From assembly GCA_017471945.1 (NCBI GenBank), contig JAFURH010000037.1, positions 3,334 through 67,333 of the forward strand: a stretch of 64,000 bases of DNA. Reading direction: 5' to 3'. Origin of the DNA: Clostridia bacterium. Lineage in GTDB: Bacteria; Bacillota; Clostridia; Christensenellales; Borkfalkiaceae. Below the pieces are notes generated by a model that was not told where the DNA came from, did no database searches, and was given only the letters and a program-made list of their open reading frames with translations. Shown here one piece after another: positions 679-36,319 of the stretch. The position numbers and the translations under genes are program-made. Position 1 is the first letter of the stretch, and each line of letters starts with the position of its first letter.

Positions 679-722
679 GCGTAAGTATTCTTTCCGAAGA
701 ATAGATAAAAAGGAGATTGTAT

Positions 723-3857: not shown

Positions 3858-3869
3858 GGAGGAAGAGAG

Positions 3870-5981: not shown

Positions 5982-5999
5982 GGGATAGGAGAAAAAACG

Positions 6000-8900: not shown

Positions 8901-9674
8901 GACAGCGACGGTGGGTTCTACGGTATCTTTGAAGGGAACGGCTATACGATCAGCAATTTAAAAGCGACGTATTGCGGCTTGTTCGGACGGATCGGCGAAG
9001 GCGCGATCGTCAGAAATCTCGGCGTAGCGAACGTAGACGTAACGGGTGTAAAAGGATTCTCGACGGGGATCGGCGGCGTTGGCTTAGCGTATAGGATCAA
9101 AGGCGAATCCGAAGCGAAAACGCTTTTGGATAACGTGTATATTCATATCGATCCCAACGACGTCAATGCTATGCGCAGTAGCCTTTACGGTGCTATTGCG
9201 TTCTATCAGTCGAATGAACACGTTTCGTATCGTAACGTAATCGTAGAATATGATCCGTTAGTGGACGCGTCGATAAAATCGCAAGACAAAGGCACGTTGT
9301 TTATGTACGATTCGGAAACGGACGAAACGCGAAACGGGACGAACGCCATAACTAAGAGAACGGATACTATGCAAGAAGTATACGTAATTTCGCCGATAGT
9401 GAATTTGATCGAATGGCGTACGGCAGAGCCTACGGCTGAAAATCCCGAAGGCGTATATGCGTATAGATACTACGCCGAAAACGAAGGCAAAACGGAAAGC
9501 GCGAACGACGGGATTTACGTTTATAAAAACGTGAGAAGATACGATACGTTTGCAGATTTCTCTGCTGATAGCGATAAATCCACGAGCGGGTTTAACGCCT
9601 CGTATTGGGATTTCAGCGGTAACGGACCGACGTGGAAGAGCGCGCCCGTTGCAAGTGAGCCCGCCGAAGAATAA
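6000..9674 (+). CDS. Large lipoprotein with Big_2-type Ig domains and two GLUG-like beta-helix modules; paralog of 49053..52547
   Basis: Lipobox VLCGC. Big_2-like LSLNKTSLSLIVGE...ANEEIAVVDELGFVTGIGEGTTTVSF. Two copies of the module GYYIL.ND.D....FDG.G..I.NL...GLFG...: GGVFDGQGHVIRNLTLG and GIFEGNGYTISNLKATYCGLFGRIGEGAIVRNLGV. Confidence 0.8.
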   Translation: MKRIFRKLLLAISSVVMLFVLCGCSCEGAAEKPSDENKNELSLNKTSLSLIVGERTETALFPVYDGTLDGYTFSSANEEIAVVDELGFVTGIGEGTTTVSFGKGTHSADCTVSVSANGMIPVLYFENELGGEKTNALISLTDECNLRAKVKFNGILYDDLNVEYTVADETVGSVEDGVFKPKKKGTTQVTLTASWRNFNDEISKEALSCVVTITVKDEIRLYVNQTNEDAFTIYTLDRFAGENYPTETAFVATCWKNGATATDIKVNVELLDGEDYVEYDSSAQTFSAKKFGNAKIKLSCVVDGEKYERTVAVKVERPIAEYSENLSLFSAVDGLVNVQQSEGYVKKLVGDLVLSQEDGAIYDAYLKTGEPLTVKDGKILGVPTRQTSITETELLIGTETVRYSVKIKGYTKVLTEAKDFDSLAAEAGVVKTGYYILMNDVDMAGHTIAHQLPDYQSASIGYSGMTALSLEKVEPYGFGGVFDGQGHVIRNLTLGTSTQADLSKKATDYNLNLKQQELLNGGLFGYLRGTAEDPFEIKNFALVNVTANGAPIFALACQGETKNDGNRVHDIYIEVNPESVRLHGLYTVMDDECMRTLTENVVLSYPVAESDLYVKDGGLKWQGGTLAYCSYRFIAGYVTDMPANFQNVNMISGSPVSLRWENASTPMGKNQYVVYAANQTPAGELTTGKKNVTGYAQLSTVYSYQTSEQFADDVAARWKKFDSSVWKMVNGVPTFRALAADVSVDGERIDGATPIDAYLKHGNEKQIESVMPQGGTFVGYRSSDENVLTIDENGRVTIKETTEVKEAYVTLEYTFAGETFEERINFHIVPEIITIDTEFEFSALDGVLPYEALGLTDIEILSAKQGDRELSVTQDGRVLDVKVSILADKSGVGFVELLLETENFTYRLTKVKAYSKIIETAEDLAVLDIVTADYRLDGYYVLKNNIDLEGATFWHKGVYDTTERKEIDSDGGFYGIFEGNGYTISNLKATYCGLFGRIGEGAIVRNLGVANVDVTGVKGFSTGIGGVGLAYRIKGESEAKTLLDNVYIHIDPNDVNAMRSSLYGAIAFYQSNEHVSYRNVIVEYDPLVDASIKSQDKGTLFMYDSETDETRNGTNAITKRTDTMQEVYVISPIVNLIEWRTAEPTAENPEGVYAYRYYAENEGKTESANDGIYVYKNVRRYDTFADFSADSDKSTSGFNASYWDFSGNGPTWKSAPVASEPAEE

Positions 9675-9686
9675 ACGATAAAAGCA

Positions 9687-9722
9687 GAGGCGGACGCGAT
9701 GTTCCGCGTTCGCCTCGTTTTT
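9687..9722 (+). terminator. Rho-independent terminator after the first cassette
   Basis: 12-bp stem gaggcggacgcg / cgcgttcgcctc (one G-T pair), 6-nt loop, then gTTTTT. Confidence 0.7.
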
Positions 9723-9744
9723 AGAAAAGAAGGAGTAAATAAAA

Positions 9745-11133
9745 ATGATTATTGAAAACGGTAAAGCAAAAGAAGTTAAAATTGCGTACGTGGGCGGCGG
9801 CTCGCGCGGTTGGGCGTGGATGTTGATGAGCGATCTCGTAAGCTGTGAAGATATGAGCGGAACGGTACGTTTATACGACATTGATAAGAAAGCGGCGGAA
9901 CACAATAAGATCGTCGGTGAAAAATTCAACGGCGCGGAAGGCGCGGTAAGTAAATGGAGCTACGAGGTTTTCGATACGCTTTCCGACGCGCTTAAAGGCG
10001 CGGATTTCGTCGTGATCTCCATTATGCCCGGTACGTTCGACGAAATGCAATCGGACGTACACGAACCCGAAAAATACGGAATCTATCAATCGGTGGGCGA
10101 TACGGTCGGCGCAGGTGGGATCGTGCGCGCGCTCAGAACCGCGCCTATGATGGAAGAAATCGCGTTTGCCGTACGGGATAATTGCCCCAACGCGTGGGTA
10201 ATTAACTATACCAACCCGATGACGATGTGCGTGAAAACGCTGTATCGGGCGTTTCCTCAAATCAAGGCGTTCGGGTGCTGTCACGAGGTGTTTGCAACGC
10301 AAAGGCTGTTGGCGACCGCTTTGGAGGATATTTTAGGTATCAAAGGGGTAACGAGAGAAGAAATTAAGGTAAATCCGATTGGTATCAATCATTTCACGTG
10401 GTTGACGGAAGCGAAGTATCACGACATCGATTTGTTCGAGGTGTATGCAAAATTCGTGAATAAATATTACGAAAGCGGTTATAACGAGGAATTGCAAGAC
10501 AATTGGGCGAACAAATTTTGGAAGAGAGCGGAACGAGTCAAAATGGACTTGTTTAAACGCTACGGCGTGATCGCGGCTGCGGGAGATCGGCATTTGGCGG
10601 AGTTCTGCCCCGGGAATTGGTATTTAAAGGATAGAGAAACGGTAGACGATTGGATGTTTGCGATCACGGACGTTTTGTGGCGTCGTGAAGATTTAAAAAC
10701 TCGTTTGCAAAAGAGCGAGGATTTAAGAACGGGAAAAAAGAACGCCGTATTAGAGCCTTCGGGAGAGGACGGGGTGAATCAAATGCGTGCGCTACTCGGC
10801 TTGCACGAAATGATCACGAACGTCAATATTCCGAACGTGGGGCAGATTCCGAATTTGCCTTTGGGCGCAGTCGTAGAAACCAACGCGATATTCAGAACGG
10901 ACGAAGTAAAGCCCGTGTTTGCAGGGCCGATTCCCAAGCAGTTATACGCAATGATCGCGCATATCGTCGGAGAACAGGAAGCGCTTGACGAAGCGATCGC
11001 GGAAAGGAGCTTGGAAAAGGCGTTCAACGTGTTTGCGGGTAGTCCGCAAGTGCGCTGTTCTTTGTCTGACGCAAGAATGCTGTTTGATACTATGATCGAA
11101 AACACGAAAGAATATTTGCCCGACTATAAATAA
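9745..11133 (+). CDS. Glycoside hydrolase family 4 (NAD+/Mn2+-dependent glycosidase, LplD/alpha-galacturonidase-like)
   Basis: N-terminal Rossmann motif KIAYVGGGSRGWAW. GH4-type FGCCHEV cysteine motif. INYTNPM block. 462 aa is typical of the family. AGGAG ribosome-binding site. Confidence 0.8.
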   Translation: MIIENGKAKEVKIAYVGGGSRGWAWMLMSDLVSCEDMSGTVRLYDIDKKAAEHNKIVGEKFNGAEGAVSKWSYEVFDTLSDALKGADFVVISIMPGTFDEMQSDVHEPEKYGIYQSVGDTVGAGGIVRALRTAPMMEEIAFAVRDNCPNAWVINYTNPMTMCVKTLYRAFPQIKAFGCCHEVFATQRLLATALEDILGIKGVTREEIKVNPIGINHFTWLTEAKYHDIDLFEVYAKFVNKYYESGYNEELQDNWANKFWKRAERVKMDLFKRYGVIAAAGDRHLAEFCPGNWYLKDRETVDDWMFAITDVLWRREDLKTRLQKSEDLRTGKKNAVLEPSGEDGVNQMRALLGLHEMITNVNIPNVGQIPNLPLGAVVETNAIFRTDEVKPVFAGPIPKQLYAMIAHIVGEQEALDEAIAERSLEKAFNVFAGSPQVRCSLSDARMLFDTMIENTKEYLPDYK

Positions 11134-11188
11134 TGAGGGCAATGCAAAAATAAAAAACGGTAAACGATTTATTAAAGGAGTAAAAACA

Positions 11189-12472
11189 ATGAAAACATTG
11201 AAAGCGGCGCTCGTAGGCGCGGGAAAAAGAGGTAAAATTTATTGCAATTACGCGTTGTATACGGAGGGTAAAGAACTTGAAATCGTCGCGGTGGTCGATC
11301 CGTTGAAATTTACGCTTGACGAAGCAGCGGAAAAATACGGCGTAAAAGAGGAAAACAGATTTTCCAGCATTGAAGAATTCGTTGCGAAAAAAATCGAGTG
11401 TGATTTCGTCGTAAACGCAACGATGGACGAAATTCATTACGAAACGGCAATGAAACTCATCAACGCGGGCTATAACTTGATTTTAGAAAAGCCGCTCACC
11501 GCAAAAAAAGCAGAGCTTTTGGAGATCGAACGCGCGGCAAAAGAAAAAGGGGTAAAAATTCTCGTTTGTCACGTGTTGCGGTATACTCCGTTTTATCGCG
11601 CGATAAAAAAAGTCATCAACGAAGGCAAGATCGGTAAAGTAATGAGTATGGAAATGCACGAGCACGTTGGGAAATATCATTTCTTGAATTCGTTCGTTCG
11701 TGGAAAATGGCATAGCGAGCAGGAGTGTGGTTCGGGATTGTTGCTCGCAAAGTGCTGTCACGATACCGACCTTATGTGTTGGTTGAACGGAGAAACTGTA
11801 CCCGAAAAAGTTTCGAGCTTCGGTTCGCGTTCGCATTTCATAAAAGAGAACGCGCCTGCGGATGCGACGGAATATTGCTATAACTGTCCGCACGTGAAAA
11901 CCTGTATATATTCGTCGCAGAAAACGAATTTGGAGTGCGATTGGATGTCGTATCAAACGTGGCAAAGAATAGGCAAGCCGCTTGACAGTATCACCTACGA
12001 AGAAAAAGTGGAATTTTTAAAACACGATACTTACGGTAAGTGCGCGTATAATTCGGGTGGAGATATCGTAGACCGTCAAAACGTCAGCGTGGAATTTGCA
12101 AACGGTTCGATTGCGAGCTTGACGATGATCGGCGGTTGCTCGAAAGAGGATAGATTTATCCATATCGTAGGCACGGAAGGGGAGATCAAAGGCTTTTGGG
12201 GTGAAAATAAATTTGAAGTTCTCCGCTTTCAATGGAGCGAAGGTTTATACGAACCGACGAAAGAAATTATCGACGTATCGCAAAACATCGTCAATAAAGG
12301 CGGGCACGGCGGCGGAGACTACGCTTTGATGCAAGACGCAGTGCGTTTCTTTGCGGGCGAAGGAGAGTCTGTGTCGGTCACGAAGATCGAGGATTCCATT
12401 AACGGGCATTTGATCGTATACGCAGCGGAGGAAAGCCGCAAGACGGGTAAGATCGTCAAAATAGAAAAATAA
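11189..12472 (+). CDS. Gfo/Idh/MocA-family oxidoreductase
   Basis: N-terminal dinucleotide fold KAALVGAGKRGKIY and the EKPL motif (LILEKPLTAKK). AAAGGAG ribosome-binding site. Confidence 0.8.
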   Translation: MKTLKAALVGAGKRGKIYCNYALYTEGKELEIVAVVDPLKFTLDEAAEKYGVKEENRFSSIEEFVAKKIECDFVVNATMDEIHYETAMKLINAGYNLILEKPLTAKKAELLEIERAAKEKGVKILVCHVLRYTPFYRAIKKVINEGKIGKVMSMEMHEHVGKYHFLNSFVRGKWHSEQECGSGLLLAKCCHDTDLMCWLNGETVPEKVSSFGSRSHFIKENAPADATEYCYNCPHVKTCIYSSQKTNLECDWMSYQTWQRIGKPLDSITYEEKVEFLKHDTYGKCAYNSGGDIVDRQNVSVEFANGSIASLTMIGGCSKEDRFIHIVGTEGEIKGFWGENKFEVLRFQWSEGLYEPTKEIIDVSQNIVNKGGHGGGDYALMQDAVRFFAGEGESVSVTKIEDSINGHLIVYAAEESRKTGKIVKIEK

Positions 12473-12650: not shown

Positions 12651-12688
12651 AAAACCCCGTGAAAATCAAACGATTTTCACGGGGTTTT
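12651..12688 (-). terminator. Perfect 17-bp hairpin immediately downstream (minus strand) of the tRNA/tmRNA-like 3' fragment
   Basis: aaaaccccgtgaaaatc / gattttcacggggtttt with a 4-nt loop. On the minus strand it follows ...CCTCGACCA directly and is followed by TTTTTGCTTGTTTTTT. Confidence 0.65.
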
Positions 12689-13091: not shown

Positions 13092-13943
13092 TTAAAACCC
13101 GAAATTTTTATGCGTTTTACGATACTGTAAAGGGGAAAGTCCTGTGCGTTCTCGAAAGACTTTGATAAAATAGGTATAAGAGGAAAAACCCGTTTTTTCT
13201 GCGATTGCCGTCACGTTTAACATAGTGGTAGTTAAATAGTTTTTTGCCATATGCAGGCGATATTGTGTGAGATATTCGTGTAAAGTTTGTTTTGTGTGTA
13301 TTTTCATTAAACGATTAAGATGATAGGAATGATAATTGAACTGCTCGGCAATCGTGCTGTTGTCCAATTCTGCGTTTTGGTAGTTATTTCGAATAAATTC
13401 CTGAACGCTTTGGATGAGTTTATAATCGGGTTTTTCGCTGGGATATTCACGCAGAAGTTCTAAAAGAGCAAGTTTTAAATAGGCAGATGCGGAATGTTTG
13501 TAATAGGAAACTTTGTGTAAAAAGAGTTGAATACAGGTTGACACGTATCCTTGACAATGTATACCGTTTTTTTCTATCAGTATTTGGGAAAATTCTTGCG
13601 GTAGCGGATAGTTTGGGAAAATTTCTTTTTTAAAGGTGCTTTCCGTTGCCGTGCCTAACGAGTGAGATTGTTTGTGAAATTCGTCCGTCAAATCAAAGTT
13701 CAAAACGTGAATTTTAACGGCTTTTTCGTCGGAAAAGCGAAAATGATAGTGTGTTTTGGGAGGCAAAAAGAGTAAAGCTCCTTTGGAAAAGGAAAAACTT
13801 TGACCGTTTGCAAAAAATAAGCCGTCGCCTTGTACGATATAAAATAAACGACAGTCATAACAAACACTGTTTTCTTTTTTTGGATAATAAGCTTCGTGCG
13901 TGCGCGCGTATCGAATAAAAGGATTTACTTGTACAATTTCCAT
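13092..13943 (-). CDS. AraC-family transcriptional regulator (cupin-like N-domain plus C-terminal HTH)
   Basis: C-terminal AraC signature IAEKTGFSSYTYFIKVFRERTGLSPLQYRK. GGAGAG ribosome-binding site before the ATG. Divergent from the operon starting at 14089. Confidence 0.85.
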   Translation of the reverse strand: MEIVQVNPFIRYARTHEAYYPKKENSVCYDCRLFYIVQGDGLFFANGQSFSFSKGALLFLPPKTHYHFRFSDEKAVKIHVLNFDLTDEFHKQSHSLGTATESTFKKEIFPNYPLPQEFSQILIEKNGIHCQGYVSTCIQLFLHKVSYYKHSASAYLKLALLELLREYPSEKPDYKLIQSVQEFIRNNYQNAELDNSTIAEQFNYHSYHLNRLMKIHTKQTLHEYLTQYRLHMAKNYLTTTMLNVTAIAEKTGFSSYTYFIKVFRERTGLSPLQYRKTHKNFGF

Positions 13944-14088
13944 AAAACTCTCCTTATGTGTTTATTATAACACAACAGGATAATTTGCGCAAGTAAATAT
14001 TTGTTTTATTATGTTTTTTTGTTTGTTGAATAATATATTTTTTCTTTTGATTTCTTTATAATAATACAAAAAGAGGAAAGGAGATCGT

Positions 14089-15102
14089 ATGCTTTTTTCG
14101 GTTGGCTATGGCGTAAAATCGGATAATCGTTTGGTGGAAGGAATTATTGCCTTAAAGCAAGGAATTCACGAGGTCTATTTTTCTTGGGGCAAAACGCCGA
14201 GCGGACGAAACGACCAAACCCGTAGCGAAGGGCTTACGCAGTGGGAAGCGCAGCAAAAACAAATCGAAGATTTGAAGATTTTGTATAAAGAGGGATTGAA
14301 ATTTAATCTTCTCTTCAACGCGAATTGCTACGGCGATAAGGCGCAAGCGCGTTCGTTTTTTTCGGAAATCGGTGAAACGGTGGAGTACGTGGGAGGAAAT
14401 TTTTCTCTTTCTTCCCTCACGACGACTTCGCCTTTGATAGCAAAATTTATCAAACAAAATTTCCCTGAAATAGACGTGCGCTCTTCCGTGAACATGGGAA
14501 TCGGCAGTATTCTTGGAATGGAATACGTAGCGGACGTATTTGATAGTTTCTATGTGAAACGGGAATTAAACCGCGATTTTAACGCCTTAAAAAGCCTGCG
14601 GAAATGGTGCGACGAAAACGGCAAACAGATGTATTTGCTTGCCAACAGCGGCTGCTTAAACGACTGTTCGGCGCATACTTTTCATGATAATTTGGTGGCG
14701 CACGAAGACGGCGCGTCAAAAATGGATAACGGGTATCAATTCACGGGCGTATGCAAAGCGTATTTGTCGCAAGAAAAGAATAGGCACGTGCTTTTGGACG
14801 GCACGAATTATATCCGTCCCGAAGATACGGAGCTGTACGAAGGGCTTGTGCCTGCTATGAAGTTGGCTACGCGTGTGCATGAAAATCCGTCGAGAGTATT
14901 AAGAGCCTATATTGAACGGAAAAAATTCGTTGGCAACACGGCGAGCTTATTAGAGCCAAACCACGCAGGTACGATTTATCCTTACGTACTTGAAAACGGC
15001 AAAATCGAAAGAAAAATAGAAAACGGAAAACTTATATACGCGAACGGAGAAAACGCGTTCGTGAAATTGGAGGAGAACTATGCTTACCAGCAAAATGATT
15101 AA
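14089..15102 (+). CDS. Divergent peptidase-U32-like (TIM-barrel) protein
   Basis: The layout resembles U32 proteins: EVYFSW early on, then VKRELNRDFNALKSL, then LLANSGCLNDCSAHTFH where U32 proteins carry their Cys-rich signature. The assignment is tentative. Confidence 0.45.
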   Translation: MLFSVGYGVKSDNRLVEGIIALKQGIHEVYFSWGKTPSGRNDQTRSEGLTQWEAQQKQIEDLKILYKEGLKFNLLFNANCYGDKAQARSFFSEIGETVEYVGGNFSLSSLTTTSPLIAKFIKQNFPEIDVRSSVNMGIGSILGMEYVADVFDSFYVKRELNRDFNALKSLRKWCDENGKQMYLLANSGCLNDCSAHTFHDNLVAHEDGASKMDNGYQFTGVCKAYLSQEKNRHVLLDGTNYIRPEDTELYEGLVPAMKLATRVHENPSRVLRAYIERKKFVGNTASLLEPNHAGTIYPYVLENGKIERKIENGKLIYANGENAFVKLEENYAYQQND

Positions 15103-16162
15103 ACAAGCAGCTTTTGAAGCAGGTGCAGACCTTTGCGGTATCGGACCTATGTCCCGATTTAACGGTGCGCCTGACGTGATGAATCCACAGTTCTTGTTCC
15201 CGCAGGCAAAGAGCTGTATCGCAATGGCGTTTCGTATTCCGCGCGGAGTACAAAGAGGCATTGAAGAAGGTACGCAATTTTATCAGTACCCGTCTATGGC
15301 GTACGGCGGTATCAACGAAATTCACGCGCCTGCGGTTTTGTATCACGTAGGAAAGGTGATAGAGGACGAAGGCTACGAAGCGTTCGTGTATCGTAATACG
15401 GGTGCGCGAGGCGCAGTATCGGATATGGACGGTTCGCCCGGAAATACTCTTTCCCCCGAAGAACAAATCGAAATCAGTAAACACGCGAAAGGCAAAACGG
15501 CGCATCATAGAAGCGTTCAATATACCCGTGCGGTGGAAGAGGGTAAGCAACCCCCCGATTTGCAATTTCAATTCCGTTTAGCGGCGGTCGCTTGCGGTCT
15601 TGGCGAAATCGGTTGGAGTAAAATGCTCTTAACCCCCGAATTTGGACCTTTGCAGCGTGTGGCGTTTATTTTCACGGACGCGGAGCTTGAATACGACGAA
15701 ATGTATTCGGGTAAACCCCTTTGCAGAAGATGCGGAGCTTGCGTAAGAGAATGTCCCGGCGGCTGTATTCCCGCAATTAAATCGGGCAAGACGATTACGG
15801 TTGATTTAGCGGGCAAGAAGTGCGAATGGGGGGATATCGATATGTGGCGTTGTTATGCGTTCTACACGCACGGCGGCAGATATTATAATCCTTTCGTACC
15901 CAAAGAAGTATTCGACAAAAACGAAAACGGTATGCTCGATTTGTTAGAGGGCGTGACGGACGTTGCCAACAAAAAGGAAGTTATGAAAGTTTACACCGCG
16001 CTTGAAAAATATTTCCCGAGCTGGGTGGGCTATAATATGGCGAAATGTGGCGGCTGTATCCGCGCTTGCGTGAGTATGCTCGAAAAGAAAGGCGGGTGTA
16101 TGGAAGGCAGGTTCGAAAACCCGTTGCGCCACGAAATGAAAGCGTGGAAGATGGATAGATGA
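15080..16162 (+). CDS. QueG/RdhA-superfamily-like [4Fe-4S] protein, paralog 1
   Basis: N-terminus MIKQAAFEAGADLCGIG is typical of epoxyqueuosine-reductase-like proteins. CRRCGACVRECP at 15722-15757. Distal WRC ... CGGCIRAC cysteines. Overlaps the upstream gene by 23 nt. Confidence 0.65.
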   Translation: MLTSKMIKQAAFEAGADLCGIGPMSRFNGAPDVMNPQFLFPQAKSCIAMAFRIPRGVQRGIEEGTQFYQYPSMAYGGINEIHAPAVLYHVGKVIEDEGYEAFVYRNTGARGAVSDMDGSPGNTLSPEEQIEISKHAKGKTAHHRSVQYTRAVEEGKQPPDLQFQFRLAAVACGLGEIGWSKMLLTPEFGPLQRVAFIFTDAELEYDEMYSGKPLCRRCGACVRECPGGCIPAIKSGKTITVDLAGKKCEWGDIDMWRCYAFYTHGGRYYNPFVPKEVFDKNENGMLDLLEGVTDVANKKEVMKVYTALEKYFPSWVGYNMAKCGGCIRACVSMLEKKGGCMEGRFENPLRHEMKAWKMDR

Positions 16163-16509
16163 TAGAAATCAAGGAAAACCCGAAAAACGGCAACGGCTTT
16201 GATACGGTACATAACTTTGAGGGCTGGAAGGTTGCGTTTATCACATGCGCCGAGCAGTACGGCGAATTAAAGGCTGTTAAACGGCACACACAAACGGACG
16301 AAGCGTTTCTGCTCGTCAAAGGCAAAGCGACGCTTTTTACTGCCGACGGCGCCGAGCCGTTAAGGGAAACGGCGTTGGAAAAAGAAAAATTATATATCGT
16401 AAAGAAAAACACATGGCATCACTTGCAGGTGAGCGAGGACGCGCTGTTGATTGTTGTGGAAAACAGCAATACGAGTAAGGACAATACGGAAAGCCGAATG
16501 GTAGGATAG
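16159..16509 (+). CDS. Small cupin-like protein
   Basis: 116 aa. ATGA overlap with the upstream gene. H-rich beta-barrel-like motifs (KRHTQTDEAFLLVKGKA ... TWHHLQV). Confidence 0.5.
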   Translation: MIEIKENPKNGNGFDTVHNFEGWKVAFITCAEQYGELKAVKRHTQTDEAFLLVKGKATLFTADGAEPLRETALEKEKLYIVKKNTWHHLQVSEDALLIVVENSNTSKDNTESRMVG

Positions 16510-16521
16510 TGAGGTAAGTAT

Positions 16522-17433
16522 ATGTTTCTGATCTACGGCGTGACGATTTTATGCGCTGGTGTAAGGTCGATTTTGACCAAGCAAAACGGAAAGATAAACG
16601 GAAGCGCGTCGTTGTTCAATTTTATGAGAGCGTTTAGCGCGTTCTTGTTGTTTGGAATTCTTGCGCTCGTCAGCGGATTTCAAATGCATTATCCAACTTG
16701 TCTTTACGGCGCGGCATATGGAATTTTGTTCTTTGGGTCTTGTTTTTGCGGGTTTCGCGCTATGCAGCGAGGACCTTTGGGAATTACCTCGTCGCTCGTT
16801 GCGTTTTCCCTTGTAATCCCGTGCGTATACGGCGCGGTGTTTTTAGAGGAAAAGATAGGACTTTTCGATATCGTCGGGTTCGTCTTGGTCGCCGTATCGA
16901 TTGTTATGATGAACAAGAAAAAGCACGCGACTTCTCATCACGGAACGTCTTCTTATCACGAGGACGTGAAAAAAGGTGATAACGAACCGAAATTCAAAAA
17001 AGGTTGGTGGATATACGTACTCGGTACGATCGTTTGCGACGGACTTCACGCCACCCTCAAAACTTTGCACCAAACGAGTTATCCCGGAATGTACCGTTAT
17101 GAATTTATGTGCGTAGGTATGCTTGTCGGCTCGGTAGCATTTATCTTTTTGATGTTTAAAAATCGGCATATCATTAAAGAGAGAGGAAAAGAACGAGGGA
17201 TAAAATGCACCGTTTACGGCGTGATTGCGGGTGTGGCGAACGGTGTGTATAATTACCTTGTTTTATATTTGGCGGGTAGCGAGAGCGCGATGGCGCTGTT
17301 CCCGATCGTTTCGGTGGCAACGATTGCCATAGGATTGCTTTCGGGGTGGATTATATTTAAGGAACGCTTAAATATAATGCAAATTGTCGGCGTATTGATT
17401 GCCGCAATTGCGATATTCTTTATAAAAATATAA
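16522..17433 (+). CDS. DMT/EamA-like 10-TM transporter
   Basis: Two hydrophobic halves separated by a charged loop (NKKKHATSHHGTSSYHEDVKKGD). GTGAGG ribosome-binding site. Similar to 21164..21976. Confidence 0.7.
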   Translation: MFLIYGVTILCAGVRSILTKQNGKINGSASLFNFMRAFSAFLLFGILALVSGFQMHYPTCLYGAAYGILFFGSCFCGFRAMQRGPLGITSSLVAFSLVIPCVYGAVFLEEKIGLFDIVGFVLVAVSIVMMNKKKHATSHHGTSSYHEDVKKGDNEPKFKKGWWIYVLGTIVCDGLHATLKTLHQTSYPGMYRYEFMCVGMLVGSVAFIFLMFKNRHIIKERGKERGIKCTVYGVIAGVANGVYNYLVLYLAGSESAMALFPIVSVATIAIGLLSGWIIFKERLNIMQIVGVLIAAIAIFFIKI

Positions 17434-17465
17434 AAAATAAAAATTACAATAGAGGAGAAACAAGA

Positions 17466-18371
17466 ATGATAACGGCTGCAATGATAAAAGAAAAAGCTAA
17501 AGAGCTTGGCGCGGGCGTATGCGGTATCGGCGATATTAAATATTTTATCGGCGACGATCCGCAACGTAATCCTTTGTCGATTTTGCCCAATGCGACTTGC
17601 GTAATTGGCTTCGGGCTTCCCGTTCCCAAAGGACTTTATATGGCAATGGAAGAACAAAGACAATATTTCAATTATACCAATCTCGCGGTGAAATACACCG
17701 ACGAAAGCTTTGCGGAAATCTTCCTTTTAAAGATGGGCGCAATGATCGAAGACGCAGGCTACGACGCTTGCTTGCAAAGATTTGTGCCTGGCTTTAAGGT
17801 GAAAGGGGATAAAAGCACCAACCCCGAAGTTTCCCGTATTTACGAATTAGAGTTCGCTTCGCCCGTAGCGGAAGGCAAACCCGTTCCGGACGTGATTATC
17901 GACTATAATAAAGCGGCGGTAGTTTGCGGCTTAGGTAGCGTAGGCTTGCACGGCAAAGTCATTTCTCCTAAATACGGCACGTTTATGCGTTGGGTGTTTA
18001 TCATCACGGATATGCCCCTTGAATGCGATAAACCGTTCGCGGAAGAGCTTTGCGATAAATGCGGTAAGTGTTTGCAAGCTTGTCCCGGAAAAGCGATTGA
18101 CGAAAACGGCGTGGACAGTTGGCAATGTAGCGTATATTATCGCGGGGCGCATAAATCTAACCCGTTTATGACGGAAGAAACGCTCAAAGACCATCCCGAG
18201 CGCGAGGCGATTATCAACGGCGAAAAGAAATTCAGCGCGGAAGAAGCGCAAGCGATTTATCCCGAGCTTAATTTCTTGCCGAAAACGCATTTTGGCTACG
18301 TGGCTTGCCTTTGCGGGAAATCGTGTGAAACGGTGTGCTATAAACATTTAAAGGAGCAAGGAAAAATATGA
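17466..18371 (+). CDS. QueG/RdhA-superfamily-like [4Fe-4S] protein, paralog 2
   Basis: MIKEKAKELGAGVCGIG N-terminus. CDKCGKCLQACP at 18051-18086. WQC ... CGKSCETVC distal cysteines. Confidence 0.65.
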   Translation: MITAAMIKEKAKELGAGVCGIGDIKYFIGDDPQRNPLSILPNATCVIGFGLPVPKGLYMAMEEQRQYFNYTNLAVKYTDESFAEIFLLKMGAMIEDAGYDACLQRFVPGFKVKGDKSTNPEVSRIYELEFASPVAEGKPVPDVIIDYNKAAVVCGLGSVGLHGKVISPKYGTFMRWVFIITDMPLECDKPFAEELCDKCGKCLQACPGKAIDENGVDSWQCSVYYRGAHKSNPFMTEETLKDHPEREAIINGEKKFSAEEAQAIYPELNFLPKTHFGYVACLCGKSCETVCYKHLKEQGKI

Positions 18372-19336
18372 GAAACCAAATTATAGAACTTGCAAAAAAA
18401 TGCGACGCAGATATCGTGGGTTTCGCACCTGCAAGTCGCTTTGATAAAAACGACCCTGTATTTAAAATTTATCCGAATACGAAAACGGTAATCGGGTTAG
18501 GCTTCCGTATTTTGCGCGGAATTTATCGCGGTGTGGAAGAAGGCACTACTTATTATCAATATACCACGATGGGCGTGGAAAACTTGGAAGAAACGGTAAT
18601 GCCGATGGCTCTTCTTCGTGTGGCGAATTTGATTGAGGAAGAGGGGTATATTGCTCTGCCTCAACGCAAAAGCCCGCTCATTTTGAACGAAGAGGGCACG
18701 ACCAACCCCGAAGTGGACTACACCGACGTATATCACGGCGTAAAAGCAGAAAATCAGTTGGATTTCTTGAACTGCGCGGTACAATGCGGACTTGGTGAAA
18801 AGAGCAAGATAGGAAGTTTATTAACGCCCGAATACGGTCCGTTTATTCGTTATTGTTTTATTTTGACGGATATGGAATTAGAGGCTACGCCCCTTGCGCA
18901 AACAAAGCTTTGCGACGGTTGCAACGAATGTATCAAAGCGTGTCCCGGTTGCGCGATTGATGAAAACGGAAAAACGGACAGCTGGCGTTGCGCGGTGTAT
19001 TATAACGGCGCAAACGGCAGTAAGAACCCGTTTATGCCCCCCGAAGCGTTTGCGGCATTTGAACACGCAAAGAAAATGGGCATTATCAACGGTACGTTAG
19101 AGTTCGACGAAGAAGGCGCGAAAGAAATTTTGGATAATATTTTCTTCTATCCCCCTGCAAAGCATTTCTACCGTACCTCGATTTGCGGTAGGGCTTGCGA
19201 CAGAGCTTGCTATATCCATTTGGAAGAAAAAGGCTTGTTGACGAAGTCATTTAATAGACCTTTTAGAGAAAAAGAAGATTGGAAATTAAGTACCGAGCAA
19301 TTTGAAAATTTCGGAAAGGAGAAGAAAGATGAATAA
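18368..19336 (+). CDS. QueG/RdhA-superfamily-like [4Fe-4S] protein, paralog 3
   Basis: IIELAKKCDADIVGFA N-terminus. CDGCNECIKACP at 18911-18946. WRC ... CGRACDRAC distal cysteines. ATGA overlap with paralog 2. Confidence 0.65.
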   Translation: MRNQIIELAKKCDADIVGFAPASRFDKNDPVFKIYPNTKTVIGLGFRILRGIYRGVEEGTTYYQYTTMGVENLEETVMPMALLRVANLIEEEGYIALPQRKSPLILNEEGTTNPEVDYTDVYHGVKAENQLDFLNCAVQCGLGEKSKIGSLLTPEYGPFIRYCFILTDMELEATPLAQTKLCDGCNECIKACPGCAIDENGKTDSWRCAVYYNGANGSKNPFMPPEAFAAFEHAKKMGIINGTLEFDEEGAKEILDNIFFYPPAKHFYRTSICGRACDRACYIHLEEKGLLTKSFNRPFREKEDWKLSTEQFENFGKEKKDE

Positions 19337-20591
19337 AGAAAAGTTAAAAATAGTTGTAGTGGGTTGCGGAAGATTTTCGCAGTTTTTCGTACCCCTTTTC
19401 AAGGCGCATCCCGTTACCGAAAAGGTTTACGTTTGCGATTTGAAAAAGGACAGAGAAGAAGAATTCGCAAACCGTTTCGGCGTAGAGCGTTGCGAGAGCT
19501 TTGAATACGCCTTGCAGTCTAAGGATATCAATGCGGTGGCGATCTTCACCCAACGCTTTAAGCACGGGCAAATGGTTATCGACGCTTTAAAGGCGGGCAA
19601 GCACGTATATTCGGCGGTGCCTTGTGCAGTTTCCGTAGACGAAATTATCGAAATTGAAAAACTCGTAAGAAAAACCCGATTGACCTATTCTATGGGGGAA
19701 ACGGGATTCTATCGCGCCCCTGCCATTTATTGTCGTGAAGAATTCAAAAAAGGTACTTTTGGAAAATTCGTATACGCGGAAGCACAGTATAATCACGATA
19801 TTCGCAATATGGAAAACAGCTTTAAAAGTTCGGGCGGAGAAGATTGGAAACGTTTTGCGGGCGTTCCTCCTTTCTTCTATCCCACGCACTCGACGTCTAT
19901 GGTGCTCAGCACTATGCCTGGTGTATATGCGAAAAAGGTGACGGCGCTCGGCTATGCAGGCAGCCCCAGAACGGATATTTACGGACAAGAGGGACAAAAC
20001 AATTATAACAATCCTTTCGCTTGCGAAAGTATGCTGATGGAGCTTTCCAACGGCGGCGTGGTACGTATCAGCGAAAACAGATGTATTGGCTGGATGTCGC
20101 CCGAAACGTATATCACGCAATACTACGGCTCGGAAGGGGGCTACGAGTTTTCCGTCGCGCATCATCACCAAGCGGTGTGGGATCCCGCACGGGCTGGTAA
20201 GGTTATTATGAAAGATGTGTCGGATAGATTGCAACCAACCTCTATTTATAATTTGATGAAAACGAATTACGACGAAGCAATCCAAAATATTGCGGATAGC
20301 GGTGGCTTCGACGAAACGTCGCCTATCCAACCTACGGAAAGATTGCCGAAAGAATTTGAGGGTATTCCCAACAAGCACAACGGTACGCACCATTTCTTGA
20401 TTGACGATTTCTGCCGTGCGTATGAAACGGGTAAGCTTTCGCCTACGAATATTTGGGCGGTAGCAAGATATAATTTGCCTGGTCTTGTGGCACATCAATC
20501 CGCGCTTCAAGGCGGGGTAGTGATGGATGTTCCTGATTTGGGTGATCCTCCCGCTGACTGGGAAGTTCTCGATTTCCGAAAAGGTTGCTAA
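19329..20591 (+). CDS. Gfo/Idh/MocA-family oxidoreductase
   Basis: KIVVVGCGRFSQFF Rossmann N-terminus. I prefer ATG 19329, preceded by GGAGAAG, over the track start 19302. Overlaps the upstream stop by 8 nt. Confidence 0.75.
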   Translation: MNKEKLKIVVVGCGRFSQFFVPLFKAHPVTEKVYVCDLKKDREEEFANRFGVERCESFEYALQSKDINAVAIFTQRFKHGQMVIDALKAGKHVYSAVPCAVSVDEIIEIEKLVRKTRLTYSMGETGFYRAPAIYCREEFKKGTFGKFVYAEAQYNHDIRNMENSFKSSGGEDWKRFAGVPPFFYPTHSTSMVLSTMPGVYAKKVTALGYAGSPRTDIYGQEGQNNYNNPFACESMLMELSNGGVVRISENRCIGWMSPETYITQYYGSEGGYEFSVAHHHQAVWDPARAGKVIMKDVSDRLQPTSIYNLMKTNYDEAIQNIADSGGFDETSPIQPTERLPKEFEGIPNKHNGTHHFLIDDFCRAYETGKLSPTNIWAVARYNLPGLVAHQSALQGGVVMDVPDLGDPPADWEVLDFRKGC

Positions 20592-20611
20592 ACGAAATAA
20601 AACGTAATATA

Positions 20612-20662
20612 AATAAGCCGTTTGTGAACGAAACCACGTTCACAAACGGCTTATTTTATTTT
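20612..20662 (+). terminator. Strong rho-independent terminator ending the 14089-20591 operon
   Basis: Perfect 19-bp stem aataagccgtttgtgaacg / cgttcacaaacggcttatt, 6-nt loop, then TTATTTT. Confidence 0.8.
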
Positions 20663-21163: not shown

Positions 21164-21976
21164 GTGGCGGCGTTATTCGCATTGATTTCGCTTAAGTTCG
21201 TCGGATTTTACGGATTGAATTGGGCGACGTTTGTTTGTTCGTTTTTATCCGCGATTTTATTTGCAATCGATCTGTTTACAGGTATTGAAGAGGTAAAGGG
21301 TGCGCCCTTAACGGTTTGTACAATGTTCGGGTTAGGCGGCTTGGTCATTTCCTGCGTGTGCGGAATCTTTATGTTTAACGAACCGATGAGTTGGTTTCAA
21401 GCCGCAGGGCTTTTGCTGTTCTTGATCGGTGCGTATTTGCTGACGGCAAAAGACAAAAATAAGACGTCAAAGATTGATTTACGAACCTATTTAATGCTAC
21501 TTATCAATTTGCTCGTAAACGGATTGGTTATGATCTTACAAAAATATTTCAGCGTAAAAGTGTCAAACGGAAACGTTTCGCTTTTCTCGTTTTTGACTTT
21601 TTTACTAAATTCTTTGATTATGTTTGTTTTCGTAGCGTTCTACGGAATAAAAAACCGATCGCGTGAAGAAAAGAACGAAAAAAAGAAAGAAAAAACGTTT
21701 TTCGGATTGCCGAAAAGGTTATTGCTGTGCGGGGCGTTGTTAGCGTTTGCGCTATTCGTGATTAACCTGTTGGTAACGCAGATGGGTAAAACCGTGGATT
21801 CGGTGATTCTTTTTCCCGTTTCCAGCGCTCTCAGTCTCGGTTTAGTCGCTTTGGTCGGTTGGGCGGCGTTTCAAGAAAAACTCGCTTTAAAAAATTGGAT
21901 TGGGCTGCTGATAGGACTTTTGGGCATCGTGATCATAGGAATTTTAACGCCCGAAACGGTATCAAAGTTGTTTTAA
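21164..21976 (+). CDS. DMT/EamA-like transporter, possibly 5'-truncated or frameshifted
   Basis: 270 aa from a GTG start. Similar to 16522..17433 but lacks the first TM segment(s). The upstream frame-0 ORF ends ...GKAFFATALIISS, which resembles the missing segment. Confidence 0.55.
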   Translation: MAALFALISLKFVGFYGLNWATFVCSFLSAILFAIDLFTGIEEVKGAPLTVCTMFGLGGLVISCVCGIFMFNEPMSWFQAAGLLLFLIGAYLLTAKDKNKTSKIDLRTYLMLLINLLVNGLVMILQKYFSVKVSNGNVSLFSFLTFLLNSLIMFVFVAFYGIKNRSREEKNEKKKEKTFFGLPKRLLLCGALLAFALFVINLLVTQMGKTVDSVILFPVSSALSLGLVALVGWAAFQEKLALKNWIGLLIGLLGIVIIGILTPETVSKLF

Positions 21977-22076: not shown

Positions 22077-22169
22077 AAAAAAGGCTGAAACGTTTTTTTA
22101 CGGCAATATAGATTTTATGTAATATACCTTTTAAAGCATTTATTGCATATAACTTTGGAGGGATTAAGA

Positions 22170-25100
22170 ATGTATAAAGCGAAGGACTTTGCGACAAGCG
22201 CATCAAAAACAATGCAAATTGTCAAATTTGTAATAGTTTGTTTTATGATACTTTTCATATCGTTCGGTTTTATGAGCATAAGCGGCTTGTTTACGACGGA
22301 GGCGCAGAATATAGAACCTATTGTGGTCAGATTCGATACGCAGGAACAAGTTGGGGAAATTAAGGCGACTAACGTTACCAAAACGTTTGTCGATGAAAGC
22401 GCTTCGAACGGTAAAAAATACGTAAGTTTTACCGGATCTAGTGATCAGCTTGAAATAAATAATTTAACCGATTTTACGGGCGAGTTCTCTCTTGACGATT
22501 ATAAGTACATAAAGCTTTCTTATCGCAGAACGGGCGTTACGAGCGTCGATGAATATACGCAACTCTTTTTTTGGACGGACGCAACGGCGAATTATGACGG
22601 ATATAAAAGGTTTAAACTTCATAAATCGGAGGTAGGACAGGAAGAATGGGTGACGTCGATCCTTTCGATCGACGATTCTGCGCAATATGCGTCAAGACTG
22701 ACTGATTACGACGAAAACGGATTGTTTATTGATCAAAATTCCGCAAGGAATAACGGTTCGGCTTGGAGTGGCGTAGTTGAAAAATTCCGATTTATTTTTT
22801 CGAGATGGGACGCCAATCCCCTTGAAAGGACGATGGATTTGGAATACGTAGCGTTTTTCAATACGGCAGAAGAAGCGGAGGCCTATCCCTTAACGGTAGA
22901 AGAAAATGCGGTGGTCGGGGCGCTTGCCAAAATGAACATAGACGTGGACCGTTCCATCGCGTATTACGACGGGGACACGCAAGCGGAAGCGGAAAAAGCG
23001 GTGCGCGCGTACGTTAAAACCTATTCGACGGCGACAATCACTCTTTCCGAGTTCAACTACGTCGCGCCGACCCAAGAGGCGGGTAGTATTACTTGTAAAG
23101 TGAAATTAGGCGATGACGAAGAGACGGAAACCAATAGCGCAACGTTGACTTGGATAATCGACGAGATGCCGGGACCGATTATTGCAAAGTTTGATTCGCA
23201 AACACAGGTCGATAAAGCGATCGTATACGACGGTACGAAAACGTTTATTGACGAGAGCGCATCGGACGGTAAAAAATATATGAGCGTCTACGGCACGGCT
23301 GATAATATTATTTTCAACAACGTGCAGGATTTTACGGGTAAATTCTCGTTGGATTTTTATCCGTATATAAAAATATCTTATCGTCGCGAAGGCATTTCCC
23401 AAAGCCAAGACGGGAAAGAATATACTCTTCTTTATTTCAATAACGGTATTGCGCAAGGGTATAAGAAGCTGAAATTGAACCGTCAAGCAGACGGCGAAGC
23501 GGCAGGTTGGGAAACGGCGGTAATTTCCATTAACGAAGGAACTTTAAAACGGTACGATGAAAACGGCGTACTTATTTCCGACGGTACGTTTACTCACGCC
23601 GATACCAATCCTTGGTCGGGTACGGCGGAATTGTTCCGTTTGGATCTTTCCCGTTATATTAACGGACCGAGAACCGTTGATTTGGAATACGTGGGCGTGT
23701 TCCATACTCAAGAAGAGGCGATCGCTTATCCTTACACCGTAGAAGAATATAAGATTGAGGGCGCGCTGAATATTATGAAGGCGTCGGGCGAAGCCTCGAT
23801 GAAATACGACGACGGCGTAACGCAAGAGAAAGCGGAACAAGCCGTGCGTGCTTACGTGGCGCAATACACCGACGCTACGTGCACGTTGTCGGGCGTGACT
23901 TATATCGCGCCGACGGACACGACGGACGGTAGACTTGCCTGTACCGTTAAGCTTGGCGACGAGGCTTTGAGCGATGAAAACAGTATGCAGTTGGATTGGA
24001 CGATCGGAAAATTGCCCGATCCTATCGTTTGGGCGATGGATAACGAAAAATTCGTTTCCAAACTCTCCGCGTGGAACTCGACCGTAGCGCTTGAAAACGG
24101 GTACGCAAGATTAAAGCCGAGTAAAAGTGAGCAAGCGGACGGATATTGCTTAGAGGCGTCGTCCGACGTTTGGGGCGAGGTTGCGTTGGGCGAATATCCC
24201 ATCGTGAAGATGCGTTATCAAAGAAAGAACGCAGAAGACGCCGTTATGCAAATATATTGGTGGGTAGACGGAAAAACGGGCTCGGACGATCATCGTTATC
24301 GCGCGTTTTCGGGCGGTACGGCGGCGGATGACGGCGATTGGATGGAAGTTATTTTAGACTTTCGCCAAGCGCCGAACGGTGAAATAGCCGTTTATCTTAA
24401 AAATCTTACCGATAATACTTCGTCAACGGCGGTCTTTACCGGCGGTTCGGGAGAGTTCAGCGGTACGTTGACGAAATTCCGATTCAACTTCGGTCGAAAG
24501 GCAAATCTCGATAGGGATACTTTGATCGAATACATCGGCGTATTCAAAACGATAGAGCAAGCGGAACAATACGTCGGCGCCGCGGACGACCGTTTGGAGG
24601 AAACGGCGGAAAAGATCGAAAATAGTAATATCAGACTTTCCTACGCGCAGGGAGCTAAGCAGAAATCGGCCGAACAAAGCGTGCTTACGCAAATTACCTT
24701 TTTAAACGGTTGCGGCGCGGAGATTTTAAACGTTGATTATCAAGAACCCGACTATGAAAACGAAGGTAGTCTTTTAGTAGACTTGCGTTTAATCAGCGGA
24801 GGAAAATGGAAAGATCTGGAAGGCGTAGAATTCGTTATCGGCAGGGCGTTCGACGATCCGATTTTATGGACGTTCAACAATCAAGAATTTATTGATAAAT
24901 TATATATACCTACGACTAGCGCGACTCAACTCGAATTGGAAAACGGCGTAATGAAAGCCACTAATCTGACGCCGGAGGTCGGTACGGGATTTGAATTTTA
25001 CGTAGAAATGCCCAACGCTGCGGATAATTTCGTTTTGCAGGATTATCCGTATATGAAGATCAAATATAAGCGTTTTGAGCCGACGTACTGCTCATTCTAT

Positions 25101-35443: not shown

Positions 35444-36238
35444 TTATTTTTTACGGTTTCGCATAGCGGAAGGGGTTTTTCCGTGATATTTTTTAAAGGT
35501 CTGATAGAAATACGGTAAGCTAAAAATACCGACCGCATAGGAAATATCCATAATAGACATTTCCGTTTCCTGCAATAAGATCGCCGCGTGCTTCATTTTC
35601 AAGGAAATAAAAACCTGATGAGGAGTGCCGATACTGGCTTTTTGAAACAGCCGAGTCAAATGTTCGGGCGTGTATCCGATTTGACGAGCGATCTCCTTGA
35701 TCGTCAGGTTCATATTTTTCGGATGGGACATAATCTCAAGCGTCTGCGAAACGGCAGAAAGGGATTGAGAGTCCTTTAAGGAAATAAATTCGGGCAAAAG
35801 GAAAGAAAATGCGATCTTATGCCATTTATCCGCTTGTGCTTTGGAAAACGAATTGTTGGCGGTTTTCAAAAGCTTTAAAAGCTTATTGTGCAGGTTCGGC
35901 GATAGGGTCGCGTATAAATCGTTGCTTGCGTGCAATTCCTCGTAAAGACCGTCATAAATACAGCGGCAGGCTTGTTGCAGGTACTCGTCTTTGACGGTAA
36001 TGTTATAATATTCGCATTCGTCGAGCAGAACGGGTTTTAAACGGTGAACGTTTTCGGGTTTGATGAGCGCGATATCATAAGTGTGAATTTCCTTTTCTTT
36101 TCCGTCGAGGCTGTTTATCAAAGAGCCTTTGCAAAGAAAAAGGATCTCCCAAAAGGTATGCAAATGCACCGTTTGGAATACGTTCGGCCAAAAGCGCGAG
36201 GAAATTTCGACTTGATCGGACATTTTATAAGTAATCAT
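35444..36238 (-). CDS. AraC-family transcriptional regulator
   Basis: C-terminal HTH IKEIARQIGYTPEHLTRLFQK ... YAVGIFSLPYFYQTFKKYHGKTPS. AAGGAG sits 6 nt before ATG 36238; the track start 36259 has no ribosome-binding site. Confidence 0.85.
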   Translation of the reverse strand: MITYKMSDQVEISSRFWPNVFQTVHLHTFWEILFLCKGSLINSLDGKEKEIHTYDIALIKPENVHRLKPVLLDECEYYNITVKDEYLQQACRCIYDGLYEELHASNDLYATLSPNLHNKLLKLLKTANNSFSKAQADKWHKIAFSFLLPEFISLKDSQSLSAVSQTLEIMSHPKNMNLTIKEIARQIGYTPEHLTRLFQKASIGTPHQVFISLKMKHAAILLQETEMSIMDISYAVGIFSLPYFYQTFKKYHGKTPSAMRNRKK

Positions 36239-36319
36239 ACAATACTCCTTTCTTATCAATAGTATAACATTTTATTTTTGGATTGTCAAATAAAAAGATT
36301 TCTAATGTACGGTGTAGAT

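Follow-up and report, generated by a model that had tools for sequence, protein, structure and literature searches.

Gene arrangement and the paralogs g2, g5 and g6

The stretch of 64,000 nucleotides from contig JAFURH010000037.1 of a Clostridia bacterium (hereafter "the window") carries seven packed plus-strand genes, designated g1 to g7, between positions 14089 and 20591, which are divergent from a gene for an AraC-type regulator. Three of them, g2, g5 and g6, encode paralogous iron-sulfur (Fe-S) proteins related to epoxyqueuosine reductase QueG and reductive dehalogenase RdhA, and g1 encodes a predicted barrel protein of the U32 type. These four genes and the regulator recur together in related gut bacteria. 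The features of the locus are the following:

13092-13943, minus strand: gene for the AraC regulator (283 amino acids), divergent from the operon
13944-14088: AT-rich divergent intergenic region of 145 bp, presumed promoter and operator
14089-15102, plus strand: g1 (337 amino acids), predicted divergent U32-type TIM-barrel protein
15080-16162, plus strand: g2 (360 amino acids), predicted QueG/RdhA-fold Fe-S protein A
16159-16509, plus strand: g3 (116 amino acids), small cupin, accessory
16522-17433, plus strand: g4 (303 amino acids), EamA/DMT transporter
17466-18371, plus strand: g5 (301 amino acids), predicted QueG/RdhA-fold Fe-S protein B
18368-19336, plus strand: g6 (322 amino acids), predicted QueG/RdhA-fold Fe-S protein C
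19302 (TTG, 429 amino acids) or 19329 (ATG, 420 amino acids) to 20591, plus strand: g7, Gfo/Idh/MocA oxidoreductase, accessory
20611-20656, plus strand: intrinsic terminator with a 20-pair stem (8 GC pairs), a 6-nt loop and a T-rich tail

A first-pass annotation of the window had described an AraC regulator divergent from seven tightly packed genes, and the open reading frame map reproduced all of its coordinates as well as the overlaps of 23 nt (g1/g2), 4 nt (g2/g3) and 4 nt (g5/g6); the fourth overlap of 8 nt (g6/g7) applies only if g7 starts at ATG 19329. The remaining gaps amount to 12 and 32 nt. A strong ribosome-binding site, aaagaggaaaggaga, can be read upstream of g1 inside the 145-bp spacer, and the single strong terminator that had been placed behind the operon is the top-scoring site of a regional terminator scan, with its 20-pair stem followed by a T run. 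Promoter consensus matches in the region were at chance level and none was mapped. Because promoter-like and weak terminator-like matches within the operon likewise occur at chance frequency only, the packing of the genes suggests that g1 to g7 are co-transcribed, which fits the single start led by a ribosome-binding site and the one terminator.

The proteins encoded by g2, g5 and g6 align end to end in BLASTP (E values of 5e-44 for g2 versus g5 and 1e-64, with 38% identity, for g5 versus g6) and share 32-39% identity in MAFFT alignments, a similarity that, judged from the sequences, is far beyond chance and indicates paralogy. In an alignment of 20 sequences the motifs CxxCxxCxxxC(P), W.C and a C-terminal CxxxCxxxC were invariant in all three ortholog groups. 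These amount to eight invariant cysteines per protein, and each paralog therefore has enough ligands for two [4Fe-4S] clusters. A leader for the twin-arginine translocation (Tat) pathway was not detected, the first 40 residues of the three proteins containing neither an RR motif nor a hydrophobic segment.

When compared to family models, the paralogs matched the NCBIfam models for RDH (TIGR02486; g2, 3e-10 and 40.4 bits; g5, 3.2e-16 and 60.1 bits; g6, 1.1e-12 and 48.5 bits) and for QueG (TIGR00276; g2, 1.4e-6 and 27.6 bits; g5, 2.8e-13 and 49.6 bits; g6, 3.3e-10 and 39.5 bits). All of these scores are under the curated cut-offs of 160.35 and 200 bits, respectively, and the matches span only ~80 residues, that to the QueG model being confined to positions ~136-211 of 337. 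Pfam yielded sub-threshold Fer4 domains only. A profile of the family searched against the PDB retrieved RdhA 8q4h (5e-15), QueG 5d08 (2e-13), PceA (2e-12) and NpRdhA (1e-7), including weak colinear N-terminal matches over the 'IKe.Ak.lGADvvGia' and 'AKsvI' strands, and g5 alone retrieved PceA (8e-9) and QueG (1.4e-7). For g2, a structure was predicted by AlphaFold2 from an alignment of 49 sequences, which included environmental orthologs of 41-47% identity (pLDDT 79, pTM 0.83). In a Foldseek search of the PDB with this model, all 46 matches at E<1e-3 were QueG or RdhA, headed by QueG 5t8y (1.7e-7), and the B12 chaperones CblD and CblC came next.

Since the NCBIfam, profile-versus-PDB and structural matches all point to QueG and RdhA, g2, g5 and g6 are placed, by sequence and by model, within the class III B12/Fe-S oxidoreductase superfamily, whose architecture of a nitroreductase-like cofactor domain followed by a ferredoxin module with two [4Fe-4S] clusters they exhibit. 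This agrees with the first-pass annotation, which had called the three genes paralogs, had noted the CxxCxxCxxxCP motif with a split second cysteine set and the lack of Tat leaders, and had proposed the same superfamily. The proteins are, however, members of neither the QueG nor the RdhA family. With QueG (5D08, 5D6S) they share the 'IK..A...GAD.vGia' start, the core AGLGE...TPEYGP..R...TD..LE.D, the CxxCxxCxxxCP of the first cluster, the completion of the second cluster by a distant cysteine, and a cytoplasmic location without Tat leader. Unlike QueG, they remain at 28-50 bits where the cut-off is 200, carry a helical insert of ~65 residues between W.C and the last CxxxCxxxC, are encoded by three paralogous genes of a regulated catabolic operon that also has a gene for a U32 protein, and lack the DYH motif as well as the C-terminal HEAT-like tRNA-binding domain, which comprises Leu257-Leu385 in B. 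subtilis QueG (PMC5175355); this domain was not matched in any of the three, and the proteins stop 10-40 residues past the last cysteine motif. With RdhA (PceA 4UQU, the RDH complex 8Q4H, NpRdhA 4RAS), the best profile match, they have in common the cofactor-binding core and the ferredoxin module, but the paralogs are shorter (~300-360 versus 450-700 residues), lack Tat leaders and are encoded in a carbohydrate context, and the operon contains neither a gene for an RdhB-like small membrane protein nor a fused reductase domain.

Conservation of the core genes and variability of the accessories

Among species-representative genomes, a scan identified 422 relatives. The best 80, all of them metagenome-assembled genomes (MAGs) of uncultured Clostridia from the guts of ruminants, deer and humans (Hadza, Nepal), were used for the following figures. 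Presence was counted in loci with enough flank, identities are medians to the window proteins, and g2 served as the locus-finding reference:

g2: reference gene, median identity 86% (80 species-level genomes)
g5: present in 71/71 loci, median identity 70%
g6: present in 71/71 loci, median identity 65%
g1: present in 64/68 loci, median identity 56%
AraC regulator: present in 62/68 loci, median identity 38%
Gfo/Idh/MocA gene (g7): present in 23/50 loci, median identity 73%
cupin (g3): present in 32/50 loci at varying positions, median identity 43%
this DMT transporter (g4): present in 1/50 loci

All four of g1, g2, g5 and g6 were present in 48 of the 50 complete loci. The order of the paralogs was fixed in 71/71 loci, none of which had only one or two of them. 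The most conserved subunit, g2, is with 83-98% identity also the easiest marker and evolves far slower than its partners (86% versus 56-70%), and such very unequal rates are typical of a catalytic subunit that is accompanied by auxiliary subunits. Beyond the cluster the outer flanks are unrelated between loci (ribosomal proteins in L040), and the functional unit therefore consists of the AraC regulator and the four core genes. Hence, the neighborhood survey did not bear out the seven-gene set as a conserved unit; the Gfo/Idh/MocA gene, the cupin and the transporters are swappable accessories.

Pfam searches recovered three further assignments of the first-pass annotation, namely the regulator (HTH_18, 7.8e-21; HTH_AraC, 1.4e-14; AraC_binding, 2e-4), which combines a cupin-type ligand domain with two helix-turn-helix units, the DMT transporter g4 (EamA, 3.6e-17) and the Gfo/Idh/MocA enzyme g7 (GFO_IDH_MocA, 3.6e-20). 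The proposed cupin, g3, is backed by a PDB match to CA_C3497 (3d0j, 8.6e-8), but its Cupin_2 match in Pfam is sub-threshold (1.6e-4; 21.7 versus 27.2 bits); NCBIfam gave WbuC/FdtA-like hints. The g4 transporter was seen only in the window and in loci L001 and L161 and is a recent insertion into the operon. Its position between g2 and g5 is occupied by a YgjV-type membrane protein in 6 loci, i.e. different transporters were independently inserted at one operon position. The closest PDB relatives of g7 are the C-glycoside 3-oxidoreductase DgpA (1.2e-15, residues 4-274) and then the sugar 3-ketoreductase KijD10 and GH109, and by sequence g7 resembles a sugar or glycoside 3-dehydrogenase. The DgpABC/3-keto-glycoside pathways, like the cluster studied here, occur in gut Clostridia; in contrast to them, a DgpB/C-type xylose-isomerase-like lyase is missing from the operon, g7 is dispensable, and the Fe-S core is not known from these pathways.

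In loci without the Gfo/Idh/MocA gene, the commonest gene directly 3' of g6 encodes a DUF5696 protein with weak GH101-like similarity, which follows g6 in 11-13 loci (e.g. L042, 11905-13587); the literature searched yielded no mention of DUF5696. Nine of the 80 loci, but not the window, have a gene for a radical S-adenosylmethionine (radical-SAM)/SPASM protein between g1 and g2 (L040, 7902-8978; L035, L038, L051, L066, L071, L073, L074 and L076). This protein is closest to TIGR04317 (tungsten cofactor oxidoreductase radical SAM maturase; 7e-75, below the cut-off) and might act in the maturation of a cofactor or protein of the complex. It was also considered as a stand-in for the Gfo/Idh/MocA enzyme, both being present together in 0 of the 50 complete loci, yet this was rejected as it is closest to maturases and not to BtrN-type dehydrogenases. 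Other accessories in the operon slots are a β-lactamase-fold protein, DUF4832, GH20, GH3 and OPT.

The remaining core protein, g1, matched no Pfam or NCBIfam family, including Peptidase_U32, at E<=0.1, and neither the single sequence nor a profile of 30 orthologs had a significant match in the PDB (5d88 at E 2.3 with the profile). The AlphaFold2 model (pLDDT 86.8, pTM 0.87), however, retrieved as its top Foldseek match the U32 peptidase Mk0906 (5d88; E 7.3e-8, TMt 0.68), to our knowledge the only solved U32 structure, with generic TIM barrels next. The model thus supports a divergent U32-type TIM barrel, and the earlier label 'U32-like' stands for the predicted fold but finds no echo in Pfam or NCBIfam. 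One ortholog is named 'collagenase-like PrtC family protease' (JGI). Gut and environmental homologs of g1 share the invariant residues C80, C189, C193 and C222 and, with few exceptions, C174. The resulting arrangement of C-x14-C-x3-C plus distant extra cysteines resembles, without being identical to, the [4Fe-4S] motifs of U32 proteins, which read CXnCX12CX3C in UbiV and CX6CX15CX3/4C in most U32 families (PMC6747719), and on this pattern g1 probably binds a [4Fe-4S] cluster. Inside the model, confidence is low only in the loop past C193, which fits a cofactor site left empty in the prediction. With UbiU-UbiV, TrhP, RlhA and Mk0906 (5D88), g1 shares the predicted TIM-barrel fold and an association with other Fe-S proteins, whereas its cysteine spacing only resembles theirs; unlike in these systems, its partners are QueG-like proteins rather than a second U32 protein, and a link to prephenate, quinones or RNA is not visible. 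Homologs of g1 outside the clade of the window end in an extra CxxxCxxCxxC (L040, 6961-7983; L096, 11115-12140; L100, 11103-12146; L130, 3602-4624), which is probably a second Fe-S site that was lost in the g1 of the window.

Beyond the gut loci, 1.8 billion representative proteins were searched with a profile, which returned 210 clusters at E<=1e-30 and 1,419 (50% identity) at E<=1e-10; orthologs number in the thousands in metagenomes from the rumen, the cecum and humans on high-fibre diets. The g2 type also has orthologs in MAGs of Omnitrophica, WOR-3, Lentisphaerae, Armatimonadota, Kiritimatiellae and Anaerolineae. Their public names are only 'hypothetical', 'ferredoxin' or 'epoxyqueuosine reductase'. 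Many of the matches are single polypeptides of about 750-810 residues with three tandem QueG-like modules (e.g. P0277, P0287, P0297 and P0304), of which modules one and three keep the Fe-S motifs and the middle one has lost its cysteines. Metagenomes of sediments, hot springs and bioreactors often contain such fusions (loci L081-L160), which are found near genes for IclR, AraC or LacI regulators, for sugar ABC transporters of the CUT1 type, and for sulfatases, SDRs and PF12831 FAD oxidoreductases. The fused gene is adjoined by a homolog of g1 (42-48% identity) in L089, L094, L096, L100 and L130, and L096 and L100 add single-module QueG-like genes (hhalign 5.6e-55 and 1.8e-43); the pairing of g1 with QueG-like genes thus recurs in loci from sediments and hot springs. 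A 346-residue neighbor of the fusion in L082 was considered as a distant g1 and rejected (hhalign probability 0.7%).

In two of the fused loci, the triple-module protein is flanked by two or three proteins of the URO-D family (L099, 6652-12710; L105, 6634-13929), and an IF-2B/MtnA-like isomerase is also present in these loci. The corrinoid-dependent methyltransferases MtaA and MtbA belong to the URO-D family, and these neighbors could link the fused proteins to corrinoid methyl-transfer chemistry.

A possible corrinoid Fe-S reductase and its alternatives

In the window, AraC-controlled operons for glycan degradation follow one another, with genes for GH4, a second Gfo/Idh/MocA protein, DUF4838, hyaluronate-lyase-like, GH2-like and GH127 proteins, ABC permeases, DUF4832/GH42-like proteins and amidohydrolases. 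A neighbor census of 80 gut and 53 environmental loci gave generic carbohydrate themes only. Neighbors include DUF5696/GH101-like, GH20 and GH3 genes and CUT1 ABC transporters, and the regulators are of the AraC, IclR and LacI types. The glycan operons, the DgpA-like g7 and the independently inserted transporters suggest that the substrate is an imported, carbohydrate-derived small molecule, which in about half of the lineages would first be oxidized to a keto-sugar. Demethylation of 4-O-methyl-glucuronate or another O-methyl sugar, amino-sugar or mucin-derived substrates and muropeptides were considered as well and found no specific support.

With regard to the cofactor, the full N-terminal cofactor domain is kept in all three paralogs. 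Residue Y70 (EEGTQYYQY motif) does not vary in any of the three paralog groups and is almost invariant (at least 90%) in the environmental orthologs, and on this conservation it is a candidate for the conserved tyrosine above the corrin. In the three closest relatives, a unit headed by a cobalamin riboswitch (RF00174) directly follows the Gfo/Idh/MocA gene:

L001, 14599-16140, minus strand: cobalamin riboswitch unit, 89 bits
L004, 13594-14879, plus strand: cobalamin riboswitch unit, 81 bits
L020, 13603-14881, plus strand: cobalamin riboswitch unit, 58 bits

The riboswitch precedes genes for a DUF4430-like lipoprotein and a CbrT-like membrane protein, to which L001 adds a BFD-like 2Fe-2S protein; the unit is inverted in L001 relative to L004 and L020, and at its site the window instead carries an EamA gene (21164-21976). 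This adjoining, putatively riboswitch-controlled B12 uptake unit is a weak hint of a B12 link; the three genomes are closely related and do not represent independent observations.

The explanation that we favor, with a probability of about 0.42, is that the operon encodes a cytoplasmic, inducible, hetero-oligomeric and probably corrinoid-containing Fe-S reductase of a carbohydrate-derived molecule. Here, AraC would control a catabolic operon, the core of which is a soluble low-potential oxidoreductase made from g1, g2, g5 and g6, and variable accessories (DgpA-like dehydrogenase, cupin, DMT, YgjV or OPT transporters, glycosidase-like proteins) would deliver and pre-activate the substrate. The proteins g2, g5 and g6 would assemble as one hetero-oligomer, in which as many as six [4Fe-4S] clusters might conduct low-potential electrons to a corrinoid bound by the slowly evolving, catalytic g2. 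By analogy with QueG and RdhA, Co(I)-type chemistry would then allow two-electron reductive cleavage of a C-O or C-X bond (deoxygenation, dealkylation), with g1 either handling and presenting the substrate or acting as a second catalytic Fe-S barrel. Complex formation, binding of cobalamin, a sugar-type substrate and the type of reaction are the elements that we infer. That the three paralogs act as one enzyme is suggested by their strict co-occurrence, by the existence of fusions with three modules and by the overlaps between coding regions, which at 4 and 23 nt also suggest translational coupling.

Several observations weigh against this proposal. The complex of g2, g5 and g6 is deduced from the genes themselves, and a one-to-one mapping of the fusion modules to them was rejected: g2 is the nearest paralog of both Fe-S modules and the middle module is degenerate, so that the fusion does not mirror the three paralogs one by one. 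Most fused loci are without g1. Cobalamin binding by the paralogs is plausible, but the TM-scores of the model to QueG and RdhA are only ~0.4, and neither a B12 gene nor, in an Rfam search of the whole window, a riboswitch was found in the 64 kb. DYH (Asp-Tyr-His), the catalytic motif of QueG (PMC4646009), is absent from g2, g5 and g6. Furthermore, the characterized U32 enzymes are hydroxylases, i.e. they carry out oxidative and not reductive chemistry, and the accessory genes are too variable to name the substrate. A more far-reaching formulation, according to which a hetero-oligomer of three QueG-like modules and a U32-type Fe-S barrel would constitute an unrecognized class III cobalamin/Fe-S enzyme for the O2-independent C-O transformation (e.g. 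deoxygenation or O-dealkylation) of a modified sugar, appears conceivable but doubtful to us.

Alternatively, g1 could be the catalyst, namely a hydroxylase or oxidase that works without O2 in the manner of UbiU/V, TrhP or RlhA, with the paralogs serving as a cobalamin-free poly-ferredoxin wire of six clusters. Indeed, characterized U32 proteins are Fe-S hydroxylases that act as hetero-oligomers (PMC6747719, PMC11574389), both clusters of QueG and RdhA are located near the surface, as suits electron transfer between proteins (PMC4646009), the cysteine-less middle module of the fusions demonstrates that modules can degenerate, and B12 genes are missing from the window. We nonetheless regard this explanation as unlikely, as the conservation of g2 and g1 (86% versus 56% identity) is the opposite of what it predicts, all paralogs retain the full cofactor domain with the invariant Y70, most fused relatives do without g1, and a riboswitch-controlled B12 uptake unit adjoins the cluster in three relatives.

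RdhA genes are commonly present in multiple copies, and g2, g5 and g6 might, as in organohalide respirers, represent three independent monomeric reductases for related substrates or successive steps. The complete Fe-S motifs in all three paralogs would be in line with this idea, as would the fact that QueG is a monomer (PMC5175355). Strict co-occurrence and fixed order in 71/71 loci, the 4- and 23-nt overlaps, the triple-module polypeptides and the unequal evolutionary rates make it decidedly unlikely. A catabolic, non-respiratory reductive dehalogenase for natural organohalides could account for RdhA being the best family-model and profile match, and cytoplasmic catabolic RdhAs exist (NpRdhA). 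Yet the RDH scores of 40-60 bits are far from the cut-off of 160, a Tat leader, RdhB or a fused NAD(P)H reductase module is not found, and the hosts are gut and rumen fibre degraders with carbohydrate genes as neighbors, so that this possibility is very improbable. Least credible of all is RNA modification by QueG-type epoxyqueuosine reduction and U32-type base hydroxylation, for although QueG (PMC5175355), TrhP and RlhA (PMC11574389) act on RNA and several sources label the orthologs 'epoxyqueuosine reductase', the QueG scores reach 28-50 bits of the required 200 over positions ~136-211 only, the HEAT-like tRNA domain and the DYH motif are lacking, and the AraC regulator, the transporter within the operon and the glycosidase and sugar-dehydrogenase neighbors speak against it.

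In the full-text literature searched, no description of the four-gene cluster was found, in keeping with the first-pass view that no described pathway has this gene set. Its suggestion of an uncharacterized anaerobic redox pathway for an imported small molecule is likewise supported, by the superfamily matches and by the lack of a described function. The folds are known; what appears new from the sequences is the assembly of three class-III-B12-type modules with a U32 protein in operons under sugar-type regulation. None of the Pfam or NCBIfam models matches g1 or scores g2, g5 or g6 above threshold, and the family is a large unannotated sister group of the known class III B12 enzymes, for which we know of only two chemistries, organohalide reduction and tRNA epoxide reduction.

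If such an unrecognized enzyme for the C-O transformation of a modified sugar is indeed encoded, it would add to dehalogenation and epoxide reduction a third reaction class for this B12 subfamily and would supply a step that has been missing from anaerobic glycan catabolism, widespread in Clostridia of gut and rumen as well as in the sediment phyla Omnitrophica, Kiritimatiellae, Lentisphaerae, Armatimonadota and Anaerolineae; the four-gene module is present in hundreds of anaerobic glycan degraders. Identification of the substrate would add a new anaerobic reaction to gut carbohydrate or xenobiotic metabolism, assign a role to two protein families that are now orphans and test whether U32 proteins also act outside hydroxylation. 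The strong conservation of g2 and the Rosetta-stone fusions make for a well-defined target for heterologous expression.

Surroundings of the operon in the window

Upstream of the AraC gene, a plus-strand operon (717-12472) encodes a 1046-residue protein without Pfam match, DUF4838, a 1224-residue Big_2/hyaluronate-lyase-N protein and GH4. It also contains the second Gfo/Idh/MocA protein, which has a cysteine-rich insert (CYNCPHVKTC), and is closed by a bidirectional terminator near 12651-12688. On the other side, an open reading frame of 2355 codons (22143-29210, plus strand) comprises about five repeats of a module of ~250 residues and a phosphoesterase-like end. It is followed 3' by genes for a 1103-residue protein without Pfam match and an 849-residue BspA-type leucine-rich-repeat protein (32815-35364); all three products look like cell-surface proteins.

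A plus-strand glycan operon of ~20 kb (region 35444-56869) is divergent from the gene for a second AraC regulator (35444-36259, minus strand) and encodes GH2-like and GH127 proteins, two ABC permeases, DUF4838, a DUF4832/GH42-like protein, two Amidohydro_2 proteins and several proteins of 580-1160 residues without Pfam assignment. Between 56000 and 62000 the GC content drops to 0.36-0.38 and the sign of the GC skew is flipped, compared with a GC content of ~0.45 and a positive skew in the rest of the window; this segment may be foreign or mobile, or may reflect a strand switch.

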